Shown here one piece after another: positions 4,564-26,386 of a DNA stretch of 64,000 nucleotides. The first letter of the stretch is position 1. Every line of letters begins with the position of its first letter. The notes below the pieces were generated by a model. The model searched no databases, was not told the DNA's origin, and was given only the letters and a program-made list of their open reading frames with translations. A program made the translations under genes and the position numbers. The DNA is from Clostridia bacterium 41_269 (lineage in GTDB: Bacteria; Bacillota; DTU086), in contig LGEZ01000005.1 in NCBI GenBank assembly GCA_001508005.1, positions 10,150-74,149 on the forward strand, read 5' to 3'.

Positions 4564-5439
4564 TTACATATTCTTCAAAGCTTCTGCACCGCCGACAATT
4601 TCTGAGATTTCCTTGGTAATTGCAGCCTGGCGGGCACGGTTGTATGAAAGGATGAGCTTATCGATGATTTCCTGAGCATTATCCGTAGCGTTGCCCATGG
4701 CTGTCATTCTGGCACCGTGCTCACTGGCTTTTGCTTCAAGGAGAGCGTGATAAACCTGAATTTCTATATGCCGCGGGAGAAGCTCTCCCAAAACCTCAGC
4801 AGGAGACGGCTCAAAAATGTATTCCACTTCACTCCAGTGTTCTTCGCCTTCCCCTTCCCCTGCCTCGGTTTCTACAGGAAGAAGCCTTACTATAGTGGGC
4901 TTCTGCTGGATAGGTGAAATAAACTCATTGAACAGCAGGTGCACTTCCCGCAGTGTTCCATCTGTAAACAGTTCCATGAGTTCCTTAGCCAGCTCTCGAG
5001 CCTGAATGTATGTGGGGATGTCCCCTATGTTTATATAATCCCTCAGAAGGGGATAATTTCTGTAGCGGAAGTAGTCCCTACCCTTCCGACCCAGGGCAAT
5101 GATCGCTGCTTCGTCCCTGCAGGAATCAATATGCTGTTGGGCAAGGCGCAGGATGTTGATGTTGTAGCCGCCTGCCAAACCCCTGTCGCCTGTTATAACC
5201 ACAAAGCCTATTTTACCCTTTTCAGGATATGACAGAAGGGGATGCTTAAACTCTCCCACCCCTGCGGTGAGCCTTCCCAGCACTTCCTGCATTTTATTGG
5301 AATAGGGCCTTGAAGAAACTGCTTTCTCCTGGGCACGGCGGAGTTTAGCTGCTGCAACCATCTCCATCGCTTTTGTAATTTTCTGGGTGCTCTTTATGCT
5401 TCGGATCCTCCGCTTTATATCCCTGGTGCTTTGAGCCAA
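4564..5439 (-). CDS. atpG: F0F1 ATP synthase subunit gamma
   Basis: 291 aa. N-terminus MAQSTRDIKRRIRSIKSTQKITKAMEMVAAAKLRRAQ is the gamma signature. Confidence 0.95.
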   Translation of the reverse strand: MAQSTRDIKRRIRSIKSTQKITKAMEMVAAAKLRRAQEKAVSSRPYSNKMQEVLGRLTAGVGEFKHPLLSYPEKGKIGFVVITGDRGLAGGYNINILRLAQQHIDSCRDEAAIIALGRKGRDYFRYRNYPLLRDYINIGDIPTYIQARELAKELMELFTDGTLREVHLLFNEFISPIQQKPTIVRLLPVETEAGEGEGEEHWSEVEYIFEPSPAEVLGELLPRHIEIQVYHALLEAKASEHGARMTAMGNATDNAQEIIDKLILSYNRARQAAITKEISEIVGGAEALKNM

Positions 5440-8430: not shown

Positions 8431-9099
8431 TTAATGATGTTCCTCTGTTGCTTCATAGAAGTAGATGGATGACAGCAGTGTAAAAACTATTGCCTGGATG
8501 AGTCCGAATAAAACAGACAAAAGCATCACTGGAAGAGGTACGAAATAGGGAATTAATCCTAAAAGCGTTGCTATGACCATTTCTTCGCCGAAGATGTTGC
8601 CGTAAAGACGGAGCGACAGAGAGAGCGGTCTAACAAAGTGCTCAATTATGTTTAAAGGAAGCATAAATACAGGCTGAAGGAACTTTTTTAAATAACCAAT
8701 ACCATGCGCTTTAACGCCGAATATATGGGTTGCAAAGAACACCGTTATGGCCAGACCTGCAGTGACGCTCCAAGTAGATGTGGGAGCCGCAAGCCCGGGA
8801 ACGTGCCCTGCTCCTGGTATTAATCCTGAATAGTTGGAAATCAAAATAAAGAGAAACATAGTCCCTAAAAAAGGAAGAAACATTCTTGCCTTTTCATAAC
8901 CTATGATGCCGCTGAAAAAGTTTAAAAGCATCTCCACAACCATTTCCAGGGCATTCTGAATTCCCTTTGGTATTTTTTCCATATTTCTGGTTGCCAGAAT
9001 GCTGAGGATAGTTAATACCAGCATAATTGCCCACATGGTGGTTACGGTGCTTGTAACTCCCAGCCCGAAGATGTGAAAAAGATAATGGGTTTCATGCAT
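8431..9099 (-). CDS. atpB: F0F1 ATP synthase subunit a
   Basis: 222 aa polytopic membrane protein with the conserved R in ...LSLRLYGNIFGE.... Confidence 0.9.
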   Translation of the reverse strand: MHETHYLFHIFGLGVTSTVTTMWAIMLVLTILSILATRNMEKIPKGIQNALEMVVEMLLNFFSGIIGYEKARMFLPFLGTMFLFILISNYSGLIPGAGHVPGLAAPTSTWSVTAGLAITVFFATHIFGVKAHGIGYLKKFLQPVFMLPLNIIEHFVRPLSLSLRLYGNIFGEEMVIATLLGLIPYFVPLPVMLLSVLFGLIQAIVFTLLSSIYFYEATEEHH

Positions 9100-15717: not shown

Positions 15718-16962
15718 ATGAAAAGAGATGCAAAAAAGAGCATAGGTCTTCTCCTGTCCCTGCTAATTGTTCTCGGGGCCTCTGCCTGCAGTTTAGGAAA
15801 GGCTGAAGGTTCAGGAGAAATCATTGAAGTAAAAACAGCCGCCGCCGAAAAGGGAAGAGCCCAAAAAACCGTAGAGGTAACAGGTTCCCTTCTACCATCC
15901 AGAACAGTTGATATTGAAAGCAAGCTTACGGGCAGGGTAAGCAGTGTCCTGTGTGATGTGGGAGATAAAGTTCAGGCGGGGCAGCTGCTGCTCCAAGTAG
16001 ACGCAAAGGAACTTAAAGCCCAGTTTGAACAGGCTGCTGCCTCAGTGGAGCAGGCAGAACAGCAGGCAGGCCTCGCAAAGATTAATATTGAAACAGCAAA
16101 ACTTCAGCAGGAAACTGCGAGAATAGCAATGGAAAGGGCAAAACTGGAAAAGGAAAACGCACAGAAAAATTACAACCGCATTAAAACCCTTGCTGAAGCT
16201 GGGGTAGTATCCCAGAGTCAGTTAGAGGAAGCTGAGCTAAAACTTCAGCAGGCCCAAAAACAGTATGAAACAGCAGTTAGACAGTACAGGCTTGCTGAGA
16301 AACAGAAAGCCAGCGCAGAGAAGCAGTATGCCATCGCATCAGGTCCCGGCATTGCCCAGGCAGAAGCAGCAAAAAATGTAATAAAGGCACAGCTGGACAA
16401 CACCAGGATAACCTGTCCCATAACCGGTATCGTAACCAACAGATATATAAATCCCGGGGAGCTTGCCACCACAGGAGCAGCTCTACTTACAGTTGCTGAT
16501 ACTTCCTCACTAAAACTGAAGGGTACGGTAAAAGAAGACGTAATTCCATACCTACATCTGGGGCAGAAGGTCAGGATAGAAACGGACGCCCTTCCAGGTA
16601 GAGTTTATCACGGAAGAATAACTGAAATTGGGCCCCTGGCGGAATCCACAGGTCAGCTCTTTCCCCTTGAAGTTGCCGTTGACAATCCAGGACAGCTGAT
16701 GCCGGGAATGACTGCAAGGGCAGTAATTACCTTTAAAGGACCTGAAGGCATAGTGGTACCCCTTTCAGCTGTCAAAAATGAGAAGGGTAAAAACTATGTT
16801 TTCGTTATTGATGACAGGGACAGGGTTAAAAGAAAGGAAATTAAGCTGGGCTTCAAAGGTGATAAGGAAGCCGTTGTACTGAAGGGAATAAAACCAGGAG
16901 ACAGGGTCGCAGCTTCAAATATTGATCTTTTAAGGGATGGAATGCGAGTAAAGGATGTTTAG
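15718..16962 (+). CDS. efflux membrane fusion protein (periplasmic adaptor), lipoprotein
   Basis: 414 aa. Lipobox LGASAC, a long A/Q/E-rich coiled coil, and C-terminal beta-barrel domains. Confidence 0.85.
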   Translation: MKRDAKKSIGLLLSLLIVLGASACSLGKAEGSGEIIEVKTAAAEKGRAQKTVEVTGSLLPSRTVDIESKLTGRVSSVLCDVGDKVQAGQLLLQVDAKELKAQFEQAAASVEQAEQQAGLAKINIETAKLQQETARIAMERAKLEKENAQKNYNRIKTLAEAGVVSQSQLEEAELKLQQAQKQYETAVRQYRLAEKQKASAEKQYAIASGPGIAQAEAAKNVIKAQLDNTRITCPITGIVTNRYINPGELATTGAALLTVADTSSLKLKGTVKEDVIPYLHLGQKVRIETDALPGRVYHGRITEIGPLAESTGQLFPLEVAVDNPGQLMPGMTARAVITFKGPEGIVVPLSAVKNEKGKNYVFVIDDRDRVKRKEIKLGFKGDKEAVVLKGIKPGDRVAASNIDLLRDGMRVKDV

Positions 16963-17537
16963 CGGGTTCTTTCAGCCTTTCCAGGCAGCGTGTAAAGGAT
17001 CTCAACACTGAATCTTCTTGAGCAGCGCCGAATCATTTTAAATACCCTATCACCAAAGAGATAGTAAAAGATGCCGTTTCCCAGGGCATGGGCAGTATCA
17101 AACCAGAAGCTGGCAGCAAAAACTCCAAGGAGAGTTTTAAGATTTAAAGGTTCAACGAAAGCTGCCCAGTACCAGAGGTCGATGATCCAGCCGAAGAGGT
17201 ATCCCCAGAGAAAGGAAAAAGCAGTCATGCTTTTCCTGCCCATTTCAGGGAAAAGCCTTTTCATCATGCCCGCTGACATCCCGGCAAGCCCCCAGGACAG
17301 CATCTGCCATAGGGTCCACGGTCCCTGCCCGAGAAAAATATTGGAAACAAAAGCAGCAGTAGACCCCACCATAAATCCCGCCCTGCTGCCCAGGGCCCTG
17401 CCGGAAACGATAACCAAAAAGGTGGTGGGCTGAACACCCGGAATAAAGGCAAAAGGAAGGCGTCCTACTGCTGCAGCTGCGGCAAGCACTGCCACAAGAG
17501 CGATTTCTTTAGAAGAAGCAGCACCCTTTTCAAACAT
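16959..17537 (-). CDS. ECF transporter S (substrate-capture) component, candidate cobalamin-specific (CbrT-like)
   Basis: 192 aa, about 6 TM. IPGVQPTTFLVIVSGRALG matches the conserved S-component PxxPITLQT...AG..LG region. It is the last gene of the riboswitch-led operon. Confidence 0.65.
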   Translation of the reverse strand: MFEKGAASSKEIALVAVLAAAAAVGRLPFAFIPGVQPTTFLVIVSGRALGSRAGFMVGSTAAFVSNIFLGQGPWTLWQMLSWGLAGMSAGMMKRLFPEMGRKSMTAFSFLWGYLFGWIIDLWYWAAFVEPLNLKTLLGVFAASFWFDTAHALGNGIFYYLFGDRVFKMIRRCSRRFSVEILYTLPGKAERTR

Positions 17538-17706
17538 CAGGTAAAAAACACCAGGGAAGCTGCCGCAGCAAAAATAAGCATGAGCCCAGGATTCTGGGCT
17601 TTAATATTTATCCGCACCATCAGAAAAACCGTTAAAAAAACCGCTGCTCCTGTAAATATCTTCTTATAAACAGACTCCACGTCTCTACCTCCCTTTTCGT
17701 TCCCCT

Positions 17707-19392
17707 TCATCCGGCACTGGAAATGATGGGACCGAGCACTTCCAGAGCCTCCTCTACCGTTGTGATCCCCTCTGCAAAGCCCCGGCACAGCTTCCCCATC
17801 TGAGTTGAATAAAAAAGGGAGCGGCTGAAAACTTCCCGTGCTTCTCCATCGCACACCTTCTCTCCACCGTGAATGATCACTGCTCTTTGTGCAAACTGGG
17901 AAGCAAACTCCACATCATGGGTGGCCATCATTACCGTAATTCCCTGTTCTTTAAGCTCTACCAGAAAATTTCCCAGCTTCATCTTTAAAAACCAGTCAAG
18001 ACCCCTGGTGGGCTCATCCAGAAGGAGAAGGGAAGGACGGAGAACCAGCACCGAAGCCAGGGCTGCCCTCTGCTGCTCTCCACTGCTCAAATCCCTGGGG
18101 TTGGCTTTTCGGCATGCATCAAGTCCCAGCTTTTTCAGAAGGTAATCCACTATGCCGTCATCCTTTAACCCAAAATTTTTCAGAGTAAAGAGGAGTTCCT
18201 CCTCCACGGTGTCCCTGAAAAGATAATCGCTGGGATTCTGGGAAAGGTATGCCACACCTCCGGGAAAAGAGAAGGTGGGGTTCTGGGCCTTTTTTTCCTG
18301 ACTGCAGTGGAATTCCACTCTTCCCTTACTGGGCGCAGCCAATCTCGCCATGACCCTCAAAAGGGTGGTTTTGCCCGCACCGTTTTCTCCAAGAACAGCC
18401 GCAAATTCCCCCATGTCCAATTTAAGGTCTATTCCCTCCAGAGCCCGCCTGCCGTTGGGGTAAATAAAGGAAACATTTTTTAGCTCCATGAGCCTTCCTT
18501 TCTCGCAGGAGAAATTCTCAGCAAAAGTTTTCCCTTTAATTTCCGCCGGAAGACTTTTTCCGTCAAGCCTTTCCTTAAGCACCCTGCGCCCTTCCTTAAC
18601 AGTAAGGGGCACCGGGGAAATGCCCAGCTCGTAAAAGAATCGGCACACGGGAGGAATTAAAACAAGCCCTTCTTTAGGGCACCTCTTTACCATTTCCTGG
18701 GGAGTACCGCAGAACAAAGCCCTACCTCCATCCATAAAAAGTACCCTGTCCGCCAGATGAAGACACCTTTCCAGCCTCTGCTCAATTAAAATCACCGTAA
18801 TACCCAGTTCCTCGTTTATACGCTTAATAAGGTTCAATATTTCCTCTGCCGAAGGAGGATCCAGCTGGGATGTAGGTTCATCAAAAATGAGGACCCTGGG
18901 CTCCATGGCAAGGACCGACGATATGACCAGCTTCTGCTTGATTCCTCCAGAAAGCTCAGAGGTGGGAACATCCTTCACCGCTGTAAGCCCCATAAAGGCC
19001 ATTACTTCAGCTATGCGGCGCCCCATTACATCCCGGGAAAGCCCAAGATTTTCTAAACCGAAGGATATTTCTGCTTCCACCTCCGTCATCACCAGCTGAT
19101 TTTCTGGGTCCTGGAAGACCATTCCTATTTCTCCCGGGGGCACCCTCCTGCGGTCCCTTATCATATCAATGCCCCGATAAAAAACACTGCCCCCTATTCT
19201 ACCACCATAAAAATCAAGGAGCAGCCCTGCCAAAAGCTTTGCCAGGGTGGACTTTCCGGACCCCGATCCTCCTATTATAAGGAAAAATTCCCCCTCGAAA
19301 ATGGACAGATCAATGTCCTCAAGGGCCGGCACACTTCTTTCCGGATAAAAATAAGTCAAATTTTCGATCTCAAATAATGCCATCTCTCCCAC
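17707..19392 (-). CDS. ECF transporter ATPase, fused EcfA-EcfA' (two ABC domains)
   Basis: 561 aa. Two Walker A motifs (GGSGSGKST and GENGAGKTT), two LSGG signatures and two H-loops. Confidence 0.9.
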   Translation of the reverse strand: MGEMALFEIENLTYFYPERSVPALEDIDLSIFEGEFFLIIGGSGSGKSTLAKLLAGLLLDFYGGRIGGSVFYRGIDMIRDRRRVPPGEIGMVFQDPENQLVMTEVEAEISFGLENLGLSRDVMGRRIAEVMAFMGLTAVKDVPTSELSGGIKQKLVISSVLAMEPRVLIFDEPTSQLDPPSAEEILNLIKRINEELGITVILIEQRLERCLHLADRVLFMDGGRALFCGTPQEMVKRCPKEGLVLIPPVCRFFYELGISPVPLTVKEGRRVLKERLDGKSLPAEIKGKTFAENFSCEKGRLMELKNVSFIYPNGRRALEGIDLKLDMGEFAAVLGENGAGKTTLLRVMARLAAPSKGRVEFHCSQEKKAQNPTFSFPGGVAYLSQNPSDYLFRDTVEEELLFTLKNFGLKDDGIVDYLLKKLGLDACRKANPRDLSSGEQQRAALASVLVLRPSLLLLDEPTRGLDWFLKMKLGNFLVELKEQGITVMMATHDVEFASQFAQRAVIIHGGEKVCDGEAREVFSRSLFYSTQMGKLCRGFAEGITTVEEALEVLGPIISSAG

Positions 19393-20294
19393 CCCCAGCC
19401 CATAAACAAGGGAACAATCAGAAAAAACATGATCCCGAAGAAAAAATAAAGGGTTTCTGGAACAGATACAAGCTCCATAAGCCTGGGATAATATGAAAAG
19501 CTTCCTTTGCCGGTATTTACAGCCAAAACCGAAAGCAGCAGCGCCAAAACAGAACAGCCTCCGGTTAAAATATCCCTGGGCCGCACTCTCTCCCGCCTGT
19601 AAACACTCTTTCTTTTTCCCCTGTATCCCCTGGCTTCCATAGCTTCTGCCAGGGTAAAGGAATCCTCTAGAGAAAAACTCAACAGGGTGTCCAGCACCAA
19701 CATATATTTCTCAGCCCTTTCTTTAAGGCCGCCCTCTCCAACATCCACTCCCCTTATAATCAGGGCTTCCCTTATTCCCTCAAGCCTCCTTATAGTACCG
19801 GGAAGAAGTCTTAAAGCCAGTGAAACCACAAGGACAGATTTAGAGGCAGAAAAAGATACCGCCCGAAGAAGCCGGTCAGGGTGAACCATGACATTAAAAA
19901 GAAAAAAAATTCCAAGAACGGTAAGGAGCCTTATTCCCATGGCAGCTCCAAAGCACAGGGCTTCAAGGGTGAATATTACTCTTTCCCCAAAGGGGAGCCT
20001 GGGGCTCTGCCACAGCACTGTTTCTCCAGAACCTGCTCCCAAAAAATTTACCAGCATTATAAGCAGTGCCATGACAGTCCCCGGTTTAAGGAAGATTTCC
20101 AAATCCTCAAGCCCCCCAGTTAAAGCCGCAGCCAGAACAATCACCAAAGAAAGCCCCAAAAGATACAGGGGATGGCTGAAAATAAGGGCCATAACCAGCA
20201 TGGAAAATAGGTACAAAGCGGCAGCCCCGGGATGCAGACTCTGAAAAAATAAATTCCCTTTTTTAAAATTAAACTGGTATGGGTATCCATTCAT
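19356..20294 (-). CDS. ECF transporter transmembrane T component (CbiQ/EcfT family)
   Basis: 312 aa polytopic protein. Overlaps the ATPase start. Typical EcfT coupling-helix region (ARGYRGKRKS...). Confidence 0.85.
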   Translation of the reverse strand: MNGYPYQFNFKKGNLFFQSLHPGAAALYLFSMLVMALIFSHPLYLLGLSLVIVLAAALTGGLEDLEIFLKPGTVMALLIMLVNFLGAGSGETVLWQSPRLPFGERVIFTLEALCFGAAMGIRLLTVLGIFFLFNVMVHPDRLLRAVSFSASKSVLVVSLALRLLPGTIRRLEGIREALIIRGVDVGEGGLKERAEKYMLVLDTLLSFSLEDSFTLAEAMEARGYRGKRKSVYRRERVRPRDILTGGCSVLALLLSVLAVNTGKGSFSYYPRLMELVSVPETLYFFFGIMFFLIVPLFMGWGWERWHYLRSKI

Positions 20295-20328: not shown

Positions 20329-21033
20329 TTAAGGCTTTAAAGAATCCCATGACGGACCCCGAAAGTTACTGCCCGCACTGTACCACCATATAATTTTATC
20401 TCCCCCTTTAACGGACATCTTACCAGCAGAAATGCTGGGAATTCTATCATTCACCTTGTACATCCATCCGCTCATCCCCTCATTTTTCTGCCCTTCCACC
20501 GATGTTACAAAGTCTCCATAGAGGGGGCTTATGGTAAAACTTAATCCTGTAGCTTCCAAGGCACCCAGAGCCGTGATCCCCCACCTGCTGTTTTCATTTA
20601 AGGTTACGAAGGAAGGACCAAAAAGCAGCTCGCCATTTTTTCCTACCACAGCAATCCAGACTTTTGTACCGCCTGATTTTTCTGCATCCTTTAGGTCCCT
20701 TTTTTGCTCTGAAAAATCTTTTTTCTGCTGCCCCTCTTTACTTCCAAAACCCTCTTTGCTTCTGCTCTCGTGCCCCGCAGTGCTTCCGCTGCTTTCCCTT
20801 TTATCCTCAAAAGAGGCTTGGTCTCTTTCTGAAACTTCATTTCCTTGGGCAGTTACTTTTTCTTCTGGCTTTTCTTCATCTACAGAAGCAGGTTTCTGAA
20901 CTTCCTTTAAAGTCAAGGAGTTCTTTAAATCATCAGAAGAAACTCCGTTAAAATGGCTGTATAGGGGAGGGCCCAAAAGGGCCAGCACCAGCACCAAAAA
21001 CGCAGCAAAGTAATGCCACCTTTTTTTGAACAT
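20329..21033 (-). CDS. signal-anchored DUF4430 (transcobalamin beta-domain-like) protein
   Basis: 234 aa. N-terminal hydrophobic anchor, a long E/K/S-rich linker, and a C-terminal block (GWMYKVNDRIPSISAGKMSVKGGDKIIWWYS) nearly identical to a block in the upstream 863-aa protein. Confidence 0.7.
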   Translation of the reverse strand: MFKKRWHYFAAFLVLVLALLGPPLYSHFNGVSSDDLKNSLTLKEVQKPASVDEEKPEEKVTAQGNEVSERDQASFEDKRESSGSTAGHESRSKEGFGSKEGQQKKDFSEQKRDLKDAEKSGGTKVWIAVVGKNGELLFGPSFVTLNENSRWGITALGALEATGLSFTISPLYGDFVTSVEGQKNEGMSGWMYKVNDRIPSISAGKMSVKGGDKIIWWYSAGSNFRGPSWDSLKP

Positions 21034-21061: not shown

Positions 21062-23653
21062 CTACTCCCATCCTTCCATCAGCACTCTGTATATCAGCAC
21101 CGCTGCTTCAGCCCTTTTTATAGCATTCTTCGGCCCAAATGTCCCATCTTCATAGCCCTTTATAAGACCGCGCTCCACTGCAGAAGCAACGGCTGTCCCT
21201 GCCCAGGGAGAAATGCTGGAAGCATCCTTAAATGAAAGAAGACCTTTTTCTTCCGTTTTTTCTCCCAATGCCCTCATCAGCATTACAGCGGCTTCTTCCC
21301 TGCTTATGCGGATGTATGGCCTAAAGGTGCCGTCTTCGTACCCTTTAATTATACCTTTTGCCGCGGACAGCATTACTGCATCATAAAACCAGCGGTCTTT
21401 TCCAACATCTTTAAATTCCCCATGGGGCAGTACTTCTATCTCACATTTTTCTTTAATTTCCAGAGCTCTCAGCAGCATTGCAGCAAATTCTGCCCTTGTG
21501 ACATCTTTACCGGGCTCAAAGTTTCCCCGTCCTGTTCCCTCAATGATACCAGCGCCACCAAGGAGCTCCACTGCATCGGAAGCCCAATTATATGCTTTTT
21601 TATCTCCCACATCACTAAAATACATCCTTTTTTCCTTTACAAATACCGCAGTACTGGATAATTCTTCAACAGCCCCAAAAACTACGCTTTGGGAAGCATC
21701 AAAAACGCAGGGCAGAGCCGTCCAGCTCTTCTTTTCCATGTCATATTGTGCCAGGACAACATCATCAGCCTTTGACAGTGGAGGAAGGAAAACTTTAAGA
21801 TAGAACACCGCTGGTGATCTGAGCTTTATACCTTCGGGTTCCAGGCAGTAAACAGGTGTAATAAGACGAAATCCCTGGGGTTCAGGATATACAGAGTCTT
21901 CTCCCACTTCCCGCACTGAAACTTCAGCTTCTTCAGCAAAGGATTTCCCTGGAACCACAAGAGCCGCCTCAAATCCGTCGGTAACAACCCCTCCCCTTTC
22001 AGGGTCCACTTTCATATTTATTTCAACAACATTCTTATCCAGCTTCCTTTTTAAAGCCAACCTCTCGTCAGCAGCGGGCATTAAATCTTCCCCTACTACG
22101 ACCACTGTTCTCCCTGCCTCTTCAATTTTCCCAAGGGTTTTTACTCTTTTTTTCAAGCCCAGCAAAGTGTACAAATTTTCGAAAGCATTTAACGCATTAT
22201 TTGAAACTTTAAGTGAAGGGGAAAGTTTTTCAACCTGTGCCGCAATTTCTTCAGAAATAACTTCCGTATTGTCGGCTTCCTCAAGCTGAAGCAGGTCCTC
22301 CCAGTCAGGACCCACAGAATCCAAACTGGTGCTGTACCACCAGATTACCTTATCTCCCTCGTCCACCTCGTAGTCCTTTGCCGATACAGAAGGAATATCA
22401 TCGTTTACCTTATACATCCAACCGCTTAAACCCTTGTTTGCCAAGCCACAAATTGAAGTAACAAAACCGTCCCACCTGCTGGACACCTCATAGGGAAGCC
22501 CCGTGGCATCGAGGGCTCCAAGGGCTGTCGCTCCCCAGGGATTGTCGGGATCAATGTCCACATAATCTGGGCCAAAAAAAATTTCGTTGTTTAAGCCCAC
22601 TACACCTACACCGACGGTAATGGCTTTTTGCTGCACTTCACCTCGGGGCTGCTGGGGCCAGTTATTATTCCCCTGGTAATCCGGCAGTAAATCTCCAAGA
22701 ATTAAATACGCATACAATGCCCAAGTGGCGTCCATTGTGTTCCTGACTTCTCCGAAGCTTCCGTCACTGTTTAAAGCATCTTCTATCATATAATCAATAG
22801 CGCTTTTGCCCTCAGAACTTTTCCACGAAGACGGGTCCCTTCCCCAAATTTTCAGGGTAACAATAACCTCAACCGTATCAATTAAAGCGTCATCCCAGGA
22901 AGAAGCCTCAAAGCTCCCGTCAGCGTTCTGTTTTCCCCGCATCCAATCAAGCCCTGCATTAACTGCCTGCTGAACGTCACTGGCGCTTTTTATATTCTCA
23001 GGCAGTGCCTTTAGTATGCGCAGAGCCTGGGCAGTAGCCATAAAATCGGGGTAAAAGGCGCTTCCCCAGCTGGCCCCCCATGAGCCGTAGCTTTCTGCCT
23101 CCTTATCCGTACATTGGCTGCTTAAAACATAACTTTTTACCTGCTCAGCATTCAAAATGCTTAAAAGCCCTGCTTGCGCCAGAGCATCAAGGGCTGCAAA
23201 GTCGCTGTATATATTTCCGTCAAAGCCCCTGTCCTCGCTCCATCTGCTGAAAAGAATACCCTTAAGCTGTGCGGACAGATCTTTGTACCCCCACTTTTCC
23301 GCCGCAAGAATGTGATGGGCTATTTCTTTAGCAGAAACCCCCTCTGGGTTTTTAACAATATCCTGGGCTTTATTTAATATCACCTGCTTTAAGGAAAGTC
23401 CTTCGTAGGTCCACTTCTGAACGGAAACATCCTCCCCAGCCAGGGTAAGCACATAGGCATCATAGGCTGATAACTTACTGCCGCTTACGTAAGCATTAAG
23501 GTTGAACTCCACAGCTTTTGAAATGAGCTGTTCATAGGTAGAAGCCGCCCCTGTACTGAAAGGGAGCCCCATTAAAACTAATAAAATGACAAGGATAAAA
23601 ACAGAAACAGATTTCAGTAAAATGGAGCCTCTAAATCTTTTTATTACCCCCAC
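21062..23653 (-). CDS. SLH-anchored surface protein: alpha/alpha-toroid (terpenoid cyclase/prenyltransferase-like) domain + DUF4430 + three C-terminal SLH repeats. I propose it is a transcobalamin/intrinsic-factor-like B12-capture protein.
   Basis: 863 aa. GTG start after AAAGGGAGG, then a signal peptide. DGSFE/DGSFGE repeat motifs. DUF4430 block GWMYKVNDDIPSVSAKDYEVDEGDKVIWWYS. Three SLH motifs (FSDVGDKKAYNW..., FKDVGKDRWFYDAV..., FKDASSISPWAGTAV...). It is the first gene after the B12 riboswitch. Confidence 0.8.
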   Translation of the reverse strand: MGVIKRFRGSILLKSVSVFILVILLVLMGLPFSTGAASTYEQLISKAVEFNLNAYVSGSKLSAYDAYVLTLAGEDVSVQKWTYEGLSLKQVILNKAQDIVKNPEGVSAKEIAHHILAAEKWGYKDLSAQLKGILFSRWSEDRGFDGNIYSDFAALDALAQAGLLSILNAEQVKSYVLSSQCTDKEAESYGSWGASWGSAFYPDFMATAQALRILKALPENIKSASDVQQAVNAGLDWMRGKQNADGSFEASSWDDALIDTVEVIVTLKIWGRDPSSWKSSEGKSAIDYMIEDALNSDGSFGEVRNTMDATWALYAYLILGDLLPDYQGNNNWPQQPRGEVQQKAITVGVGVVGLNNEIFFGPDYVDIDPDNPWGATALGALDATGLPYEVSSRWDGFVTSICGLANKGLSGWMYKVNDDIPSVSAKDYEVDEGDKVIWWYSTSLDSVGPDWEDLLQLEEADNTEVISEEIAAQVEKLSPSLKVSNNALNAFENLYTLLGLKKRVKTLGKIEEAGRTVVVVGEDLMPAADERLALKRKLDKNVVEINMKVDPERGGVVTDGFEAALVVPGKSFAEEAEVSVREVGEDSVYPEPQGFRLITPVYCLEPEGIKLRSPAVFYLKVFLPPLSKADDVVLAQYDMEKKSWTALPCVFDASQSVVFGAVEELSSTAVFVKEKRMYFSDVGDKKAYNWASDAVELLGGAGIIEGTGRGNFEPGKDVTRAEFAAMLLRALEIKEKCEIEVLPHGEFKDVGKDRWFYDAVMLSAAKGIIKGYEDGTFRPYIRISREEAAVMLMRALGEKTEEKGLLSFKDASSISPWAGTAVASAVERGLIKGYEDGTFGPKNAIKRAEAAVLIYRVLMEGWE

Positions 23654-23859
23654 AGGCAGTTTCCTCCCTTTAAATTTTTACGCCGTAAAAATTTAAAAAG
23701 GCTGCAGCTTCAAACCACCCCCTTTTTGACCATCAGGATGGGGCAGAAAGCCGACAGCCTTTTTTGAGCAGAAAATCCCCCAAACCCGAAAAAACCAATC
23801 CGCTTTTTCGGCATAAAAGCAAAAACCCTGCTCCTAAGCAAGCAGGGGCCAAGGCCTTC

Positions 23860-24040
23860 CCCATCCTGCGTAGGGAGCACCCAGCTCACAGGCAGGAACA
23901 GGTCTCCTGGCTCGGCTTCACCGCAGGCCTGCGCCTTCCCAGGCAAAAGCCCAGTGGCATAATGCAGACTGCTCCACCTTACAGTGGCGCGGACCGCGCC
24001 GGATTCTCACCGGCTTCCCTTGATACCTGCCCGTCTGTGT
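23860..24040 (-). promoter_or_regulatory. cobalamin (B12) riboswitch
   Basis: Minus-strand RNA ...AAGGGAAGCCGGUGAGAAUCCGGCGCGGUCCGCGCCACUGUAAGGUGGAGCAGUCUGCAUUAUGCCACUGGGC... carries the GGUG-AA-UCC core and the B12 box GCCACUG. It is about 200 nt upstream of the 863-aa gene start. Confidence 0.8.
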
Positions 24041-24204
24041 TTTTTTAAATTATAACCGATGGAAAAAAACGGGTCAACAGGGACCAAATGCTGACCCTTT
24101 AGCTTAGCGAGGAAATAATTAACACCCTTTTTAATATGACAGAACCTCCTTCGGCCACATATTATGTGTTTAGTATACAATATGTAATTTAAGGAGGACC
24201 TTTA

Positions 24205-25017
24205 ATGTCAATAACAATTACTGTGTTCCCTGGAAAAGACAAAGCAAATCTTAAGGAAAACTTTAAACCCATCACCTTTATCAGTGGGGAAAGTGTTTCC
24301 ATTGTGGGACCCACAGGAAGCGGCAAAACAGCTTTTATTAACGATATTGAACTCCTTGCCCAAGGGGATACCGTAACGGGCCGTACCGTTATGATCAACG
24401 GGCAGTATCCTTCAGATGAGTACCGGCACAATCCCGCCGTTAAACCCATAGTCATGATCACCCAAAATACCAAATGCTTCACCGATCTTACCGTGGAAGA
24501 GTTCATCCTTACCCATGCCAGGGCTAGAAAAAAGGAAGGGCCCAAAATAGCGGCATTAACAATAGAGATGGCTAACCTCTTTACTGGAGAAAAAATTTCC
24601 GAAAAAATGCGGGTTACATCTCTTTCAGGGGGACAGACAAGGGCCCTTATGATTGCCGACGCCATAACTGTGGGAGCTGCACCCATTATCCTGCTGGATG
24701 AAGTTGAAAATGCAGGCATTTTTAAACATAAGGTGATAGAAGTGATTAAAAATACGGATAAAATTATCATTTTCGTAACCCATGACCCCGTTATTGCCCT
24801 GCTTACGGATAAAAGAATAGTAATGAAAAATGGTGCTGTTAAGAAGGTCATCAACCAAAGCAAAAAAGAACTTTGGGCTGCCAAAGTGCTAATAGATCTT
24901 GACCAAAAAATGGGGATGATCCGCGAAGAACTGCGCCGGGGAAACATTATTTCTGAGGAAATCCTTGGAATTATAGGGCTTGAAGCCGGCGTAGTAACAA
25001 GCGCGGAGGTGGTTTAA
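24205..25017 (+). CDS. stand-alone ABC-type ATPase (no adjacent permease)
   Basis: 270 aa. Walker A GPTGSGKT, signature LSGGQ, Walker B ILLDEVENA, H-loop VTHD. Confidence 0.85.
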   Translation: MSITITVFPGKDKANLKENFKPITFISGESVSIVGPTGSGKTAFINDIELLAQGDTVTGRTVMINGQYPSDEYRHNPAVKPIVMITQNTKCFTDLTVEEFILTHARARKKEGPKIAALTIEMANLFTGEKISEKMRVTSLSGGQTRALMIADAITVGAAPIILLDEVENAGIFKHKVIEVIKNTDKIIIFVTHDPVIALLTDKRIVMKNGAVKKVINQSKKELWAAKVLIDLDQKMGMIREELRRGNIISEEILGIIGLEAGVVTSAEVV

Positions 25018-25724
25018 TGAAACTTTTAATTATTGCAGGTCCTCCCTCCTCTGGAAAAACCGCTTTGGCTAAACAGATCATAAAAAATTTAGGTTATTGC
25101 TTAAAAATTTCCTTCTTAAAGATTGATGTGGTAAAGGCCTTTGAAGATGAAGAACTTAAGAAGGAATTTAATATTGAAACTATGAAGGTGTATTCAGGGG
25201 ATCTGTGTCCCGATCATGCGGAAGTAATGGTTCTGGGAGATGCTGTTTCGTGGGCAGAAAACTTAAAATCGGACCTATTGATAGTTGAAAGCGCAGGGCT
25301 CTGCTTAAGATGTTCTCCTTACCTAAATCAGGGATTGGGAATAGTGGTACTGGACGCCATCTCCGGCATTCATGCCCCTGCAAAAATGGGACCCATGGTG
25401 AGCCTGGCAGATATAGCCGTAGTAACAAAGATCGATCTGGTTAGCCAGGCGGAAAGGGAAGTGTTCAGGCAGAAAATTTTTGAAATTAATCCTGAAATTC
25501 AGATGTTTGAGACAAATGCCCTTTACGGCACTTCCCTGCAGTTCCTCTATCGCAAAATTCTTATGTCGGACCCCATAAATCCTGAAACCCTTAAACTTAA
25601 GGGGGTTCCGCCCATAGGCACCTGCACCATATGTGTGGGGAGAAAGGAAATCGGATGGAAGCACCACTTCGGCATAGTAAAAAAACTTGATCAGTGCAGT
25701 GAATATCTCTACAGGGGGGAGTAA
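25017..25724 (+). CDS. G3E-family P-loop GTPase (HypB/UreG/MeaB-like metallochaperone)
   Basis: 235 aa. Walker A GPPSSGKT. LLIVESAGLCL...VVLDAISG...VVTKIDL parallels HypB ENVGNLVCP...VLSVTEG...VINKIDL. Start codon overlaps the stop of the ABC ATPase. Confidence 0.75.
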   Translation: MKLLIIAGPPSSGKTALAKQIIKNLGYCLKISFLKIDVVKAFEDEELKKEFNIETMKVYSGDLCPDHAEVMVLGDAVSWAENLKSDLLIVESAGLCLRCSPYLNQGLGIVVLDAISGIHAPAKMGPMVSLADIAVVTKIDLVSQAEREVFRQKIFEINPEIQMFETNALYGTSLQFLYRKILMSDPINPETLKLKGVPPIGTCTICVGRKEIGWKHHFGIVKKLDQCSEYLYRGE

Positions 25725-25726
25725 CC

Positions 25727-26386
25727 ATGGGTGAAAAAGGAATAAAATGGCTGCCTCCCGGGAAGAACTGCGGACTATGCGGGTTAAAAACCTGCAGCCT
25801 CTTTGCAGCTCTTGTTGAAGCAGGAATTAAGAACCCCAAGGACTGTCCCTATTACCTTGAAGCAAAAAGTCCCAAAGAAAAAAATCTTCCGGAATATATA
25901 GAACACGAAGCCCTTTTCCCTGAAAGAGATGTATTGGGGAAAGAATTTGATTTTATTCTCCATCCCCTGCCGGGGGAAATTTCTGCACGAAAAATCATAC
26001 TGCCCTTCAGAAGCAATCTGGTGGATACCAGGAAAATAGTTCCAGGAGATATAGTTATGGGAAGGCCCATGGGGGCGGGCTGCCCCATCCCCCATGTTCT
26101 TAAAGTTATAAAAGCTGAACCCCTAACGGGACTTCTCCATACCTGGGTAGTGGGTCCAAAATACTCTCGAGAAGGAAAAGTAAAAATTAAAGATCTTTCC
26201 GCCTACCACATGGTGGGATTTGAAGGAATTGCCCGAAATATAAAAAGGGAACCCACTTTTGGAATGAGACAGAGATTTCTTCCAGGATTCTGCATGATGA
26301 CCTTAAGCCATACGGGAATCATCAACATGATTCTTGTTAAAAAAAGCGGGCTTCACGTACGAATAGAAGATATCAGGATTATGTAG
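25727..26386 (+). CDS. protein with an N-terminal Cys4 putative [4Fe-4S] domain (CFeSP-large-subunit / RnfB N-terminal type) and an uncharacterised C-terminal domain
   Basis: 219 aa. PPGKNCGLCGLKTCSLFA...KDCPYY matches the CX2CX4C...C 'putative Fe-S cluster' domain. Sits 2 nt after the GTPase gene. Confidence 0.65.
   Translation: MGEKGIKWLPPGKNCGLCGLKTCSLFAALVEAGIKNPKDCPYYLEAKSPKEKNLPEYIEHEALFPERDVLGKEFDFILHPLPGEISARKIILPFRSNLVDTRKIVPGDIVMGRPMGAGCPIPHVLKVIKAEPLTGLLHTWVVGPKYSREGKVKIKDLSAYHMVGFEGIARNIKREPTFGMRQRFLPGFCMMTLSHTGIINMILVKKSGLHVRIEDIRIM

Follow-up and report, generated by a model that had tools for sequence, protein, structure and literature searches.

What does a cobalamin riboswitch control in an uncultured thermophilic Clostridia, and does it switch its genes off or on? 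This question is raised by a stretch of 64,000 nucleotides (nt) from the metagenome-assembled genome (MAG) Clostridia bacterium 41_269 (contig LGEZ01000005.1, positions 10,150 to 74,149), hereafter the window. An earlier annotation, made from the letters of this stretch alone and referred to here as the original prediction, had proposed a cobalamin riboswitch at 23860-24040 heading five genes of a B12-repressed corrinoid acquisition system. Downstream of this leader, on the minus strand, we find open reading frames (ORFs) for an 863-amino-acid (aa) transcobalamin-like protein with SLH repeats, a 234-aa DUF4430 protein, and an energy-coupling factor (ECF) transporter made up of EcfT, a fused EcfA-EcfA′ ATPase (EcfAA′) and a CbrT-like S component. 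We conclude, at a probability of roughly 0.85, that a transcriptional OFF cobalamin (corrinoid) riboswitch controls one six-ORF corrinoid-scavenging operon in this organism.

When the window was compared with all 4227 families of Rfam, the sole match above threshold was RF00174 (Cobalamin), at 24043-23880 on the minus strand. This match scored 106.9 bits against a gathering score of 31.5 (E 9e-26) and covered positions 1-189 of the 189-position model without truncation, and a permissive scan of 23600-24250 returned other RNA families only as sub-threshold noise. The element is a cobalamin riboswitch, chance being excluded, and the RF00174 search named as a check in the original prediction is passed decisively. 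The RNA sequence quoted there lies on the minus strand, at about 24017-23940. The limits given for the riboswitch were too tight: the complete switch, with promoter and expression platform, extends over about 24077-23815. The distance to the GTG start codon (23653), put at about 200 nt, is 226 nt when counted from the aptamer 3′ end.

Within the aptamer, the P1 helix is predicted to form between 24034-24026 and 23896-23888, and the L5 loop region reads GGUCCGCG (23995-23988). The core motifs, i.e., GGGAA...GGUG..A.UCC, GCCACUG and the B12 box AGCCAGGAGACCUG, are all there and are invariant or nearly so across 25 related aptamers. GCCACUG occurs twice (23988-23982 and 23958-23952); it had been rightly recognised as a conserved motif of the aptamer, but wrongly labelled as the B12 box. 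Historically, the name B12 box belongs to the 3′ motif rAGYCMGgAgaCCkGCcd, which in the window reads GAGCCAGGAGACCUG (23913-23899). This position agrees with the placement of the B12 box near the aptamer 3′ end (PMC11260477).

We then considered the surroundings of this aptamer in related loci, which were collected in a scan of one genome per species and encode relatives of the toroid and DUF4430 domains of the 863-aa protein (n = 80). They include cultured Thermovorax, Neomoorella, Desulfotomaculum, Desulfofundulus, Pelotomaculum, Desulfoscipio and Desulfovirgula. Searching them with a covariance model built from the 25 related aptamers yielded 105 aptamers, and Rfam confirms the matches, including the lowest-scoring ones. 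A same-strand cobalamin aptamer lies no more than 2.5 kb upstream of the first toroid gene in 65 of the 80 loci, among them loci of Moorella, Thermosediminibacter relatives, Desulfotomaculum relatives, Pelotomaculum, Syntrophomonas and others. As for the other 15, six have less than 700 nt of upstream sequence, in eight an aptamer lies on the same strand at a greater distance upstream or precedes a second toroid gene, and one (L059) gave no aptamer in the covariance-model search. The gene order toroid-DUF4430, DUF4430, EcfT, EcfAA′, CbrT-like is kept in 62 loci, and 6 further loci have at least EcfT and EcfAA′; most others are short contigs. Since the aptamer stands upstream in 65 of the 80 loci and is confirmed by Rfam, linkage of the riboswitch to this operon is a conserved trait of the family and not an accident of the window.

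The same comparison led us to reject a coding explanation of the leader. Similarity of the 78-aa and 94-aa ORFs in this region to the 80 loci is confined to the aptamer and hops between frames, which bears out the earlier dismissal of both as artefacts. The 78-aa ORF over the leader was nonetheless called by the metagenome gene caller; this call is spurious.

Reading along the transcript, the leader consists of a near-consensus promoter-like site, the aptamer, a P13 hairpin and an intrinsic terminator (Table 1). The promoter-like site agrees with 11/12 consensus positions, is the best in the 7.9 kb scanned and ends 5 nt ahead of the aptamer. P13 (23885-23848) and the terminator hairpin (23847-23826) adjoin and have no bases in common, and the 5′ arm of the terminator, CCCCUGC, could instead pair with the 3′ strand of L13/P13, GCAGGAUGGGG, to form an antiterminator. 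In folds of the platform, P13 together with the terminator is the minimum-energy structure at -30.6 kcal/mol and the antiterminator reaches -27.5 kcal/mol, a gap of about 3 kcal/mol. The L13 loop, ACGCAGGAU (23871-23863), is complementary to L5 of the aptamer, UCCGCG of L5 facing CGC-A-GGA of L13 with one bulged A. Within P13, the 22-nt block GCUCCCUACGCAGGAUGGGGAA (23878-23857) is nearly invariant across 12 aligned related leaders that come from several genera, while its flanks vary. Moreover, cognate L5-L13 pairs beat permuted ones in all but 1 of 10,000 permutations (33 distinct combinations, with loops defined by hand); as the sequences are related, neither this figure nor that of the duplex-energy test described below is a true probability. 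A kissing loop between L5 of the aptamer and L13 of the platform is likely.

The sign of the switch needed checking, because an activating corrinoid riboswitch is now known, that of A. halodurans cobT, in which P13 overlaps the terminator (PMC10327014). The repressing layout was established by compensatory mutagenesis on P. megaterium metE (PMC10327014). The window resembles this RF00174 member in its full-length class-I-type aptamer, in a likely kissing-loop partner of L5 in P13, in a separate terminator and in a predicted antiterminator formed by the P13 3′ strand and the terminator 5′ arm. It differs in its L5 (UCCGCG, consensus UCCCG), in the bulged A that the proposed kissing loop would need in L13, and in a further structured leader of about 160 nt with a second hairpin and U-tract before the start codon, all known for the window from predicted folds. 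By structure prediction, then, P13 and the terminator are separate and the P13 3′ strand pairs with the terminator 5′ arm, which are the marks of a repressing switch in PMC10327014, and the layout is therefore the repressing one, the activating type being rare. Single-sequence thermodynamics is ambiguous between ON and OFF, the lowest-energy fold changing with the sub-sequence chosen, so we assigned the sign from the architecture, the comparative data and the published mutational model. On these grounds the switch is very probably of the transcriptional OFF type. The original prediction had spoken of 'direct sequence evidence' for repression by B12; repression is well supported, but indirectly.

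If the switch were instead of the ON type, binding of a corrinoid would activate the operon, for example so that corrinoids are imported or remodelled only when present. Next to the cobT precedent, a fold obtained for the leader's 3′ half points this way: in it, the 3′ strands of P1 and of L13/P13 are paired and the terminator is intact, which naively means termination without ligand. However, P13 and terminator share bases in the activating type, whereas here they are adjacent, separate and coexist in the lowest-energy fold, with the P13 3′ strand complementary to the terminator 5′ arm as in the repressing model. In addition, the cargo is an uptake system, a class of genes that is classically repressed, and the layout recurs, a hairpin with a U-tract following shortly past the aptamer in 62 of 66 related leaders. 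We consider an ON switch very unlikely.

Behind the leader follow six close-packed minus-strand ORFs, with gaps of 28 and 34 nt and then three overlaps. This arrangement is in keeping with the proposed operon, its five genes becoming six ORFs in that the S component is split. It is conceivable that the riboswitch governs the first gene or genes only, with the ECF genes under promoter(s) of their own, or that this copy is decaying, so that B12 repression of the operon would be partial. A 1-nt shift indeed splits the S component, unlike in any relative examined, and weak promoter-like and terminator-like matches lie inside the genes. Still, the small gaps and overlaps offer scant room for promoters, the internal terminator-like matches (20, versus 11.8 +/- 4.4 in shuffled sequence) are not clearly above background, and most loci keep the gene order with a riboswitch only at the 5′ end. 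Partial control of this kind is improbable in our view, and we retain the reading in which one OFF switch governs all six ORFs.

To what end would such an operon be controlled by corrinoids? The 863-aa product of its first gene, 100% identical to a protein of the MAG Clostridia bacterium 41_269, comprises a signal peptide, an alpha/alpha toroid (about residues 36-320), a DUF4430/SLBB beta domain (about 345-441), a middle region of about 220 aa and three SLH repeats (about 660-860). As read from the sequence, its N-terminus (KRFR, a hydrophobic stretch and TGA/AS) is signal-peptide-like; Pfam returned SLH (PF00395, 7.9e-39, in three C-terminal stretches) and DUF4430 (1.1e-16). A signal peptide combined with three tandem SLH repeats characterises SLH-anchored surface proteins. 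Residues 1-461 were modelled with AlphaFold2 using 26 homologues (mean pLDDT 89.9), and the model predicts the two-domain fold of the cobalamin carriers, namely an N-terminal alpha6/alpha6 toroid and a C-terminal beta-grasp domain. When this model was compared with the PDB by Foldseek, the top 14 entries were all haptocorrin (4KKI), transcobalamin (8IXU, 2BB5, 2BB6) or intrinsic factor (2PMV, 3KQ4), aligned over 441-458 columns that take in both the toroid and the beta domain (E 4e-9 to 1.7e-6). Toroids of prenyltransferases and terpene cyclases ranked only below these carriers.

At the level of sequence, Pfam gave for the 863-aa protein no match to the eukaryotic cobalamin-binding family, returning only DUF4430, SLH and a sub-threshold SQHop_cyclase_C, and a phmmer search of the capture domain against PDB sequences found just prenyltransferase beta subunits at E about 0.8. 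The protein is therefore a fold-level relative that belongs to the bacterial SLBB/DUF4430 clade and not to the animal family. Compared with the animal carriers (2BB5, 2PMV, 4KKI), it has 13-18% identity, an extra middle region and three wall-tethering SLH repeats. The bacterial 'transcobalamin-like SLBB' clade was described as toroid plus SLBB proteins with signal peptides, often accompanied by a second SLBB paralogue in CbiO/CbiQ-like operons of Desulfotomaculum, Moorella and others, and was predicted to scavenge B12 (Burroughs et al. 2007, PMC1796856). Like the members of this clade, the 863-aa protein is predicted to be secreted, and its gene shares an operon with genes of the CbiQ/CbiO type and with that of a second SLBB paralogue. 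The literature searched yielded no experiment that tests a bacterial transcobalamin-like member for B12 binding. The paralogue, the 234-aa protein, begins with a hydrophobic anchor, which an E/K/S-rich linker of about 95 aa connects to a DUF4430 domain at the C-terminus. This domain is transcobalamin beta-like (1.6e-14 at residues 154-219), and the protein is probably tethered to the membrane. Nearly all related loci have a paralogous beta-domain gene at the same position.

The transporter genes complete the operon. The gene ecfT is syntenic in 68 of the 80 loci, and the EcfAA′ ATPase matches TIGR04520 (368.3 bits, cut-off 315) and TIGR04521 (345.8 bits, cut-off 330) in two stretches each; its likely ATG is at 19383, and the gene overlaps the end of ecfT. 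The 192-aa S component matches ECF_trnsprt (PF12822) at 32.6 bits against a cut-off of 30.7. Its best solved relative is 6fnp_A (E 7.3e-12, residues 11-161), the next (4hzu_S) reaching E 0.013. These matches place it in the CbrT family, and homology suggests that it is specific for corrinoids: 6FNP is ECF-CbrT of Lactobacillus delbrueckii, which imports cobalamin and cobinamide in an ATP-dependent manner and for which hemin is no competitor (PMC5997447). The window shares with this system (Santos et al. 2018, PMC5997447) a homologous S component (E 7e-12), EcfT and two EcfA domains, and its predicted substrates are likewise cobalamin and cobinamide. In L. delbrueckii, the general ECF module is encoded elsewhere (group II) and no extracellular binding proteins lie nearby, whereas the window has a dedicated module with EcfT, two EcfA domains and the S component encoded contiguously in the operon (group I), with fused ATPases and two extracytoplasmic transcobalamin-like proteins. 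In relatives, moreover, the S component carries a two-helix N-terminal extension, in which they differ from L. delbrueckii.

This extension is what is split off in the window, as a 57-aa ORF whose ATG overlaps the ecfAA′ stop and whose stop overlaps the ATG of the 192-aa ORF. Translating this segment by hand in three frames in ten relatives showed that there it forms one continuous ORF with the S component. The junction reads ACCTGATGTTT; one added G (Trp codon) would give ...FFTW-MFEKG..., compared with ...FFYWGFEQG... in relatives. The same split occurs in two independent assemblies (L001 and L002). Either the frame shift or split gene is real, or the two assemblies have a sequencing error in common. 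Full-length CbrT (182 aa), which itself has no extension, can be aligned with the 192-aa core, and the split product may therefore still work. With its transcobalamin-fold SLH protein, DUF4430 protein, EcfT/EcfAA′ and CbrT-like S component, and with the conserved riboswitch link, the locus fits the corrinoid acquisition system of the original prediction.

Taken together, these results suggest the following mechanism. Transcription would start just downstream of TTGACC/TATAAT. In cells rich in adenosylcobalamin or a related corrinoid, this ligand would bind the aptamer, L5 would kiss L13 and P13 would be locked, so that the terminator (23847-23826) forms and RNA polymerase halts at the U-tract ahead of the first gene. 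When corrinoid is scarce, the unlocked P13 3′ strand would pair with the terminator 5′ arm as antiterminator, allowing the operon to be transcribed. The SLH-anchored transcobalamin-like protein would then capture corrinoid at the cell wall, between its toroid and beta domain, the membrane-tethered beta-domain protein may help to relay it inward, and the CbrT-like S component with its dedicated EcfT/EcfAA′ would import it using ATP.

Several points weigh against this reading. We infer the regulatory sign, the co-transcription of the six ORFs, the binding of corrinoid and the hand-off steps, next to an aptamer identity, terminator, domain folds, gene order and conserved linkage that we observed. 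The fold check on the kissing loop proposed in the original prediction came out divided: L13 is complementary to L5 and the test restricted to the loops is significant, whereas an unbiased duplex-energy test of L5 against whole platforms is not (p about 0.1), because G-rich platform segments pair with any C-rich L5. The platform folded alone favours the terminator even without ligand, and switching must therefore be kinetic or depend on strands of the aptamer. There are also rival pairings, e.g., of CCUGUUCCUG at the aptamer 3′ end with UAGGAGCAGG in the 3′ part of the terminator, and the antiterminator described above is one candidate. As for the capture protein, its match to the transcobalamin fold has a low TM score (0.36-0.46), a global root-mean-square deviation of about 21 A and 13-18% identity; modest scores and a large deviation are to be expected if the ligand-free model orients the two domains differently. 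Lastly, the S component is frame-shifted, and this copy might thus be impaired.

A further point of this kind concerns the cargo. A Lactobacillus sakei operon of similar make-up (lsa1836-1840), with an ECF module, an S component and separate transcobalamin alpha-like and beta-like proteins, has been linked to heme uptake by genetics and docking, and is argued to take up heme (preprint 10.1101/864751). By analogy, the operon in the window could import another tetrapyrrole such as heme, its riboswitch merely coupling the two pathways. The same preprint, however, leaves cobalamin possible. Moreover, operons of this type are preceded by a cobalamin aptamer in 65 of the 80 loci, the S component is closest to CbrT, whose B12 transport hemin does not compete, and the fold list of the capture protein is topped by cobalamin carriers only. 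We give heme, or any other tetrapyrrole, the slimmest of chances, and hold to corrinoids as the cargo.

Table 1. Features of the riboswitch leader and the operon in the window (positions 1 to 64,000).
Feature	Position	Strand	Basis
Sigma-70-type promoter-like site, TTGACC-17 nt-TATAAT	24049..24077	-	consensus match only
Cobalamin aptamer (RF00174), full length including P6 extension	23880..24043	-	covariance-model match
P13 hairpin, expression platform	23848..23885	-	predicted fold
Intrinsic terminator, CCCUGCUU-GCUUAG-GAGCAGGG (23847-23826) then UUUUUGCUUUU	23815..23847	-	top-ranked terminator-like site
Rest of 5′ leader, three predicted hairpins	23654..23814	-	fold z -3.89
H1 hairpin	23811-23786	-	fold
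H2 hairpin, then UUUUUAAAUUUUU	23759-23700	-	fold
H3 hairpin, palindrome adjoining the ribosome-binding site	23694-23672	-	fold
Ribosome-binding site GGGAGG	23668-23663	-	sequence
863-aa predicted secreted, cell-wall-anchored transcobalamin-like protein	21062..23653	-	Pfam, AlphaFold2, Foldseek
234-aa DUF4430 protein	20329..21033	-	Pfam
EcfT, 312 aa, transmembrane coupling subunit	19356..20294	-	Pfam CbiQ PF02361, 41.8 bits vs cut-off 25
Fused EcfA-EcfA′ ATPase, two ABC domains, 558-561 aa	17707..19392	-	NCBIfam, Pfam ABC_tran twice
57-aa ORF, two transmembrane segments	17537..17710	-	matches S-component N-terminal extension in relatives
192-aa ECF S component, CbrT-like	16959..17537	-	PF12822

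Between the terminator and the start codon, the leader (23814-23654) is unusually structured, none of 200 shuffled sequences folding as well. The second of its three hairpins, H2, contains CCCCAUCCUG (23743-23734), a perfect 10-nt complement of the invariant L13/P13 3′ strand CAGGAUGGGG (23868-23859), and a homologous hairpin with CCCAUCCUG and a U-tract was found only in loci L004 and L012. In this sub-clade, the P13 3′ strand may thus gate two successive terminators, the second being H2 with its U-tract 125 nt downstream, a suggestion drawn from complementarity.

The related loci also vary in several respects. Tandem aptamers are present in 10 of the 65 loci (L003 at 8453-9066, L005, L024, L028, L031, L036, L047, L058, L079 and L080), those of L003 and L058 being confirmed by Rfam, and the window has a single one. 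Aptamers of 250-275 nt occur in L044 (455-712), L056 (9227-9492), L061 (7787-8053), L036, L037, L020, L022, L058, L079 and L081, with an insertion of about 80 nt past the second GCCACUG that enlarges the peripheral extension. That these long aptamers are broken, as they looked in the alignment, was rejected in view of their scores of 93-132 bits with the 25-aptamer model. Two or three toroid plus DUF4430 paralogues, sometimes with a second CbrT-like gene, are encoded within one cluster in L036, L037, L042, L056, L061, L063, L065, L073, L074, L076, L077 and L082; such paralogous toroid genes may reflect several corrinoid specificities. In L003, a thiamine pyrophosphate (TPP) riboswitch (RF00059, 76.8 bits) lies at 4733-4831, about 4 kb upstream of the tandem cobalamin riboswitches. 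No Pfam family matches the middle region of the 863-aa protein (residues about 460-680, 21650-22270 on the minus strand). Homologues conserve this region, and some have Big_2 Ig-like domains there.

On either side, the operon borders on other transcription units. A divergent plus-strand trio (24205-26386), which has a 150-nt promoter region in common with the riboswitch, encodes an ABC-ATPase-like protein without an adjacent permease, a CobW/HypB-like GTPase and a PF04060 Fe-S protein. We rejected this trio as part of the system, since it is found beside the operon in none of the 80 loci; it is probably unrelated. At the other end, the last operon gene overlaps by 4 nt (16959-16962) with the convergent gene 15718-16962, which encodes an RND/MFP-type periplasmic adaptor in an MFS/MarR cluster, and there is no space for a terminator between the convergent units.

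All the components of the system were previously described or predicted: predictions of the system date from 2007-2009, and the characterisation of the transporter type from 2018. CbrT itself was reportedly first predicted by Rodionov et al. in 2009, as related by Santos et al. In Bacteroides, BtuG and BtuH are riboswitch-controlled, surface-exposed, high-affinity B12 binders that feed a transporter, a concept shared with the window. Their folds, their anchoring as outer-membrane lipoproteins and the TonB-dependent BtuB are unrelated to the system described here, so the likeness is one of analogy only. By definition, ECF transporters do without extracytoplasmic substrate-binding proteins. We put forward tentatively, at a little under even odds, that this operon, which is widespread in Clostridia, is an exception, in which an S-layer-tethered transcobalamin homologue and a membrane-tethered beta-domain paralogue capture corrinoid and relay it in two steps to ECF-CbrT, as a prokaryotic counterpart, and possible ancestor, of the haptocorrin/intrinsic factor/transcobalamin relay of animals.

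On the present reading, six genes with vague names ('S-layer domain protein', 'hypothetical', 'cobalt transport') in a Clostridia MAG from an oil reservoir would become a coherent, B12-repressed system for corrinoid salvage. The riboswitch linkage in 65 of the 80 loci is the strongest available support for the 2007 prediction that bacterial transcobalamin-like DUF4430 proteins handle corrinoids. The operon is a good target for experiments on the competition for cobamides among Gram-positive anaerobes, and on the possible use of accessory binding proteins by an ECF transporter.

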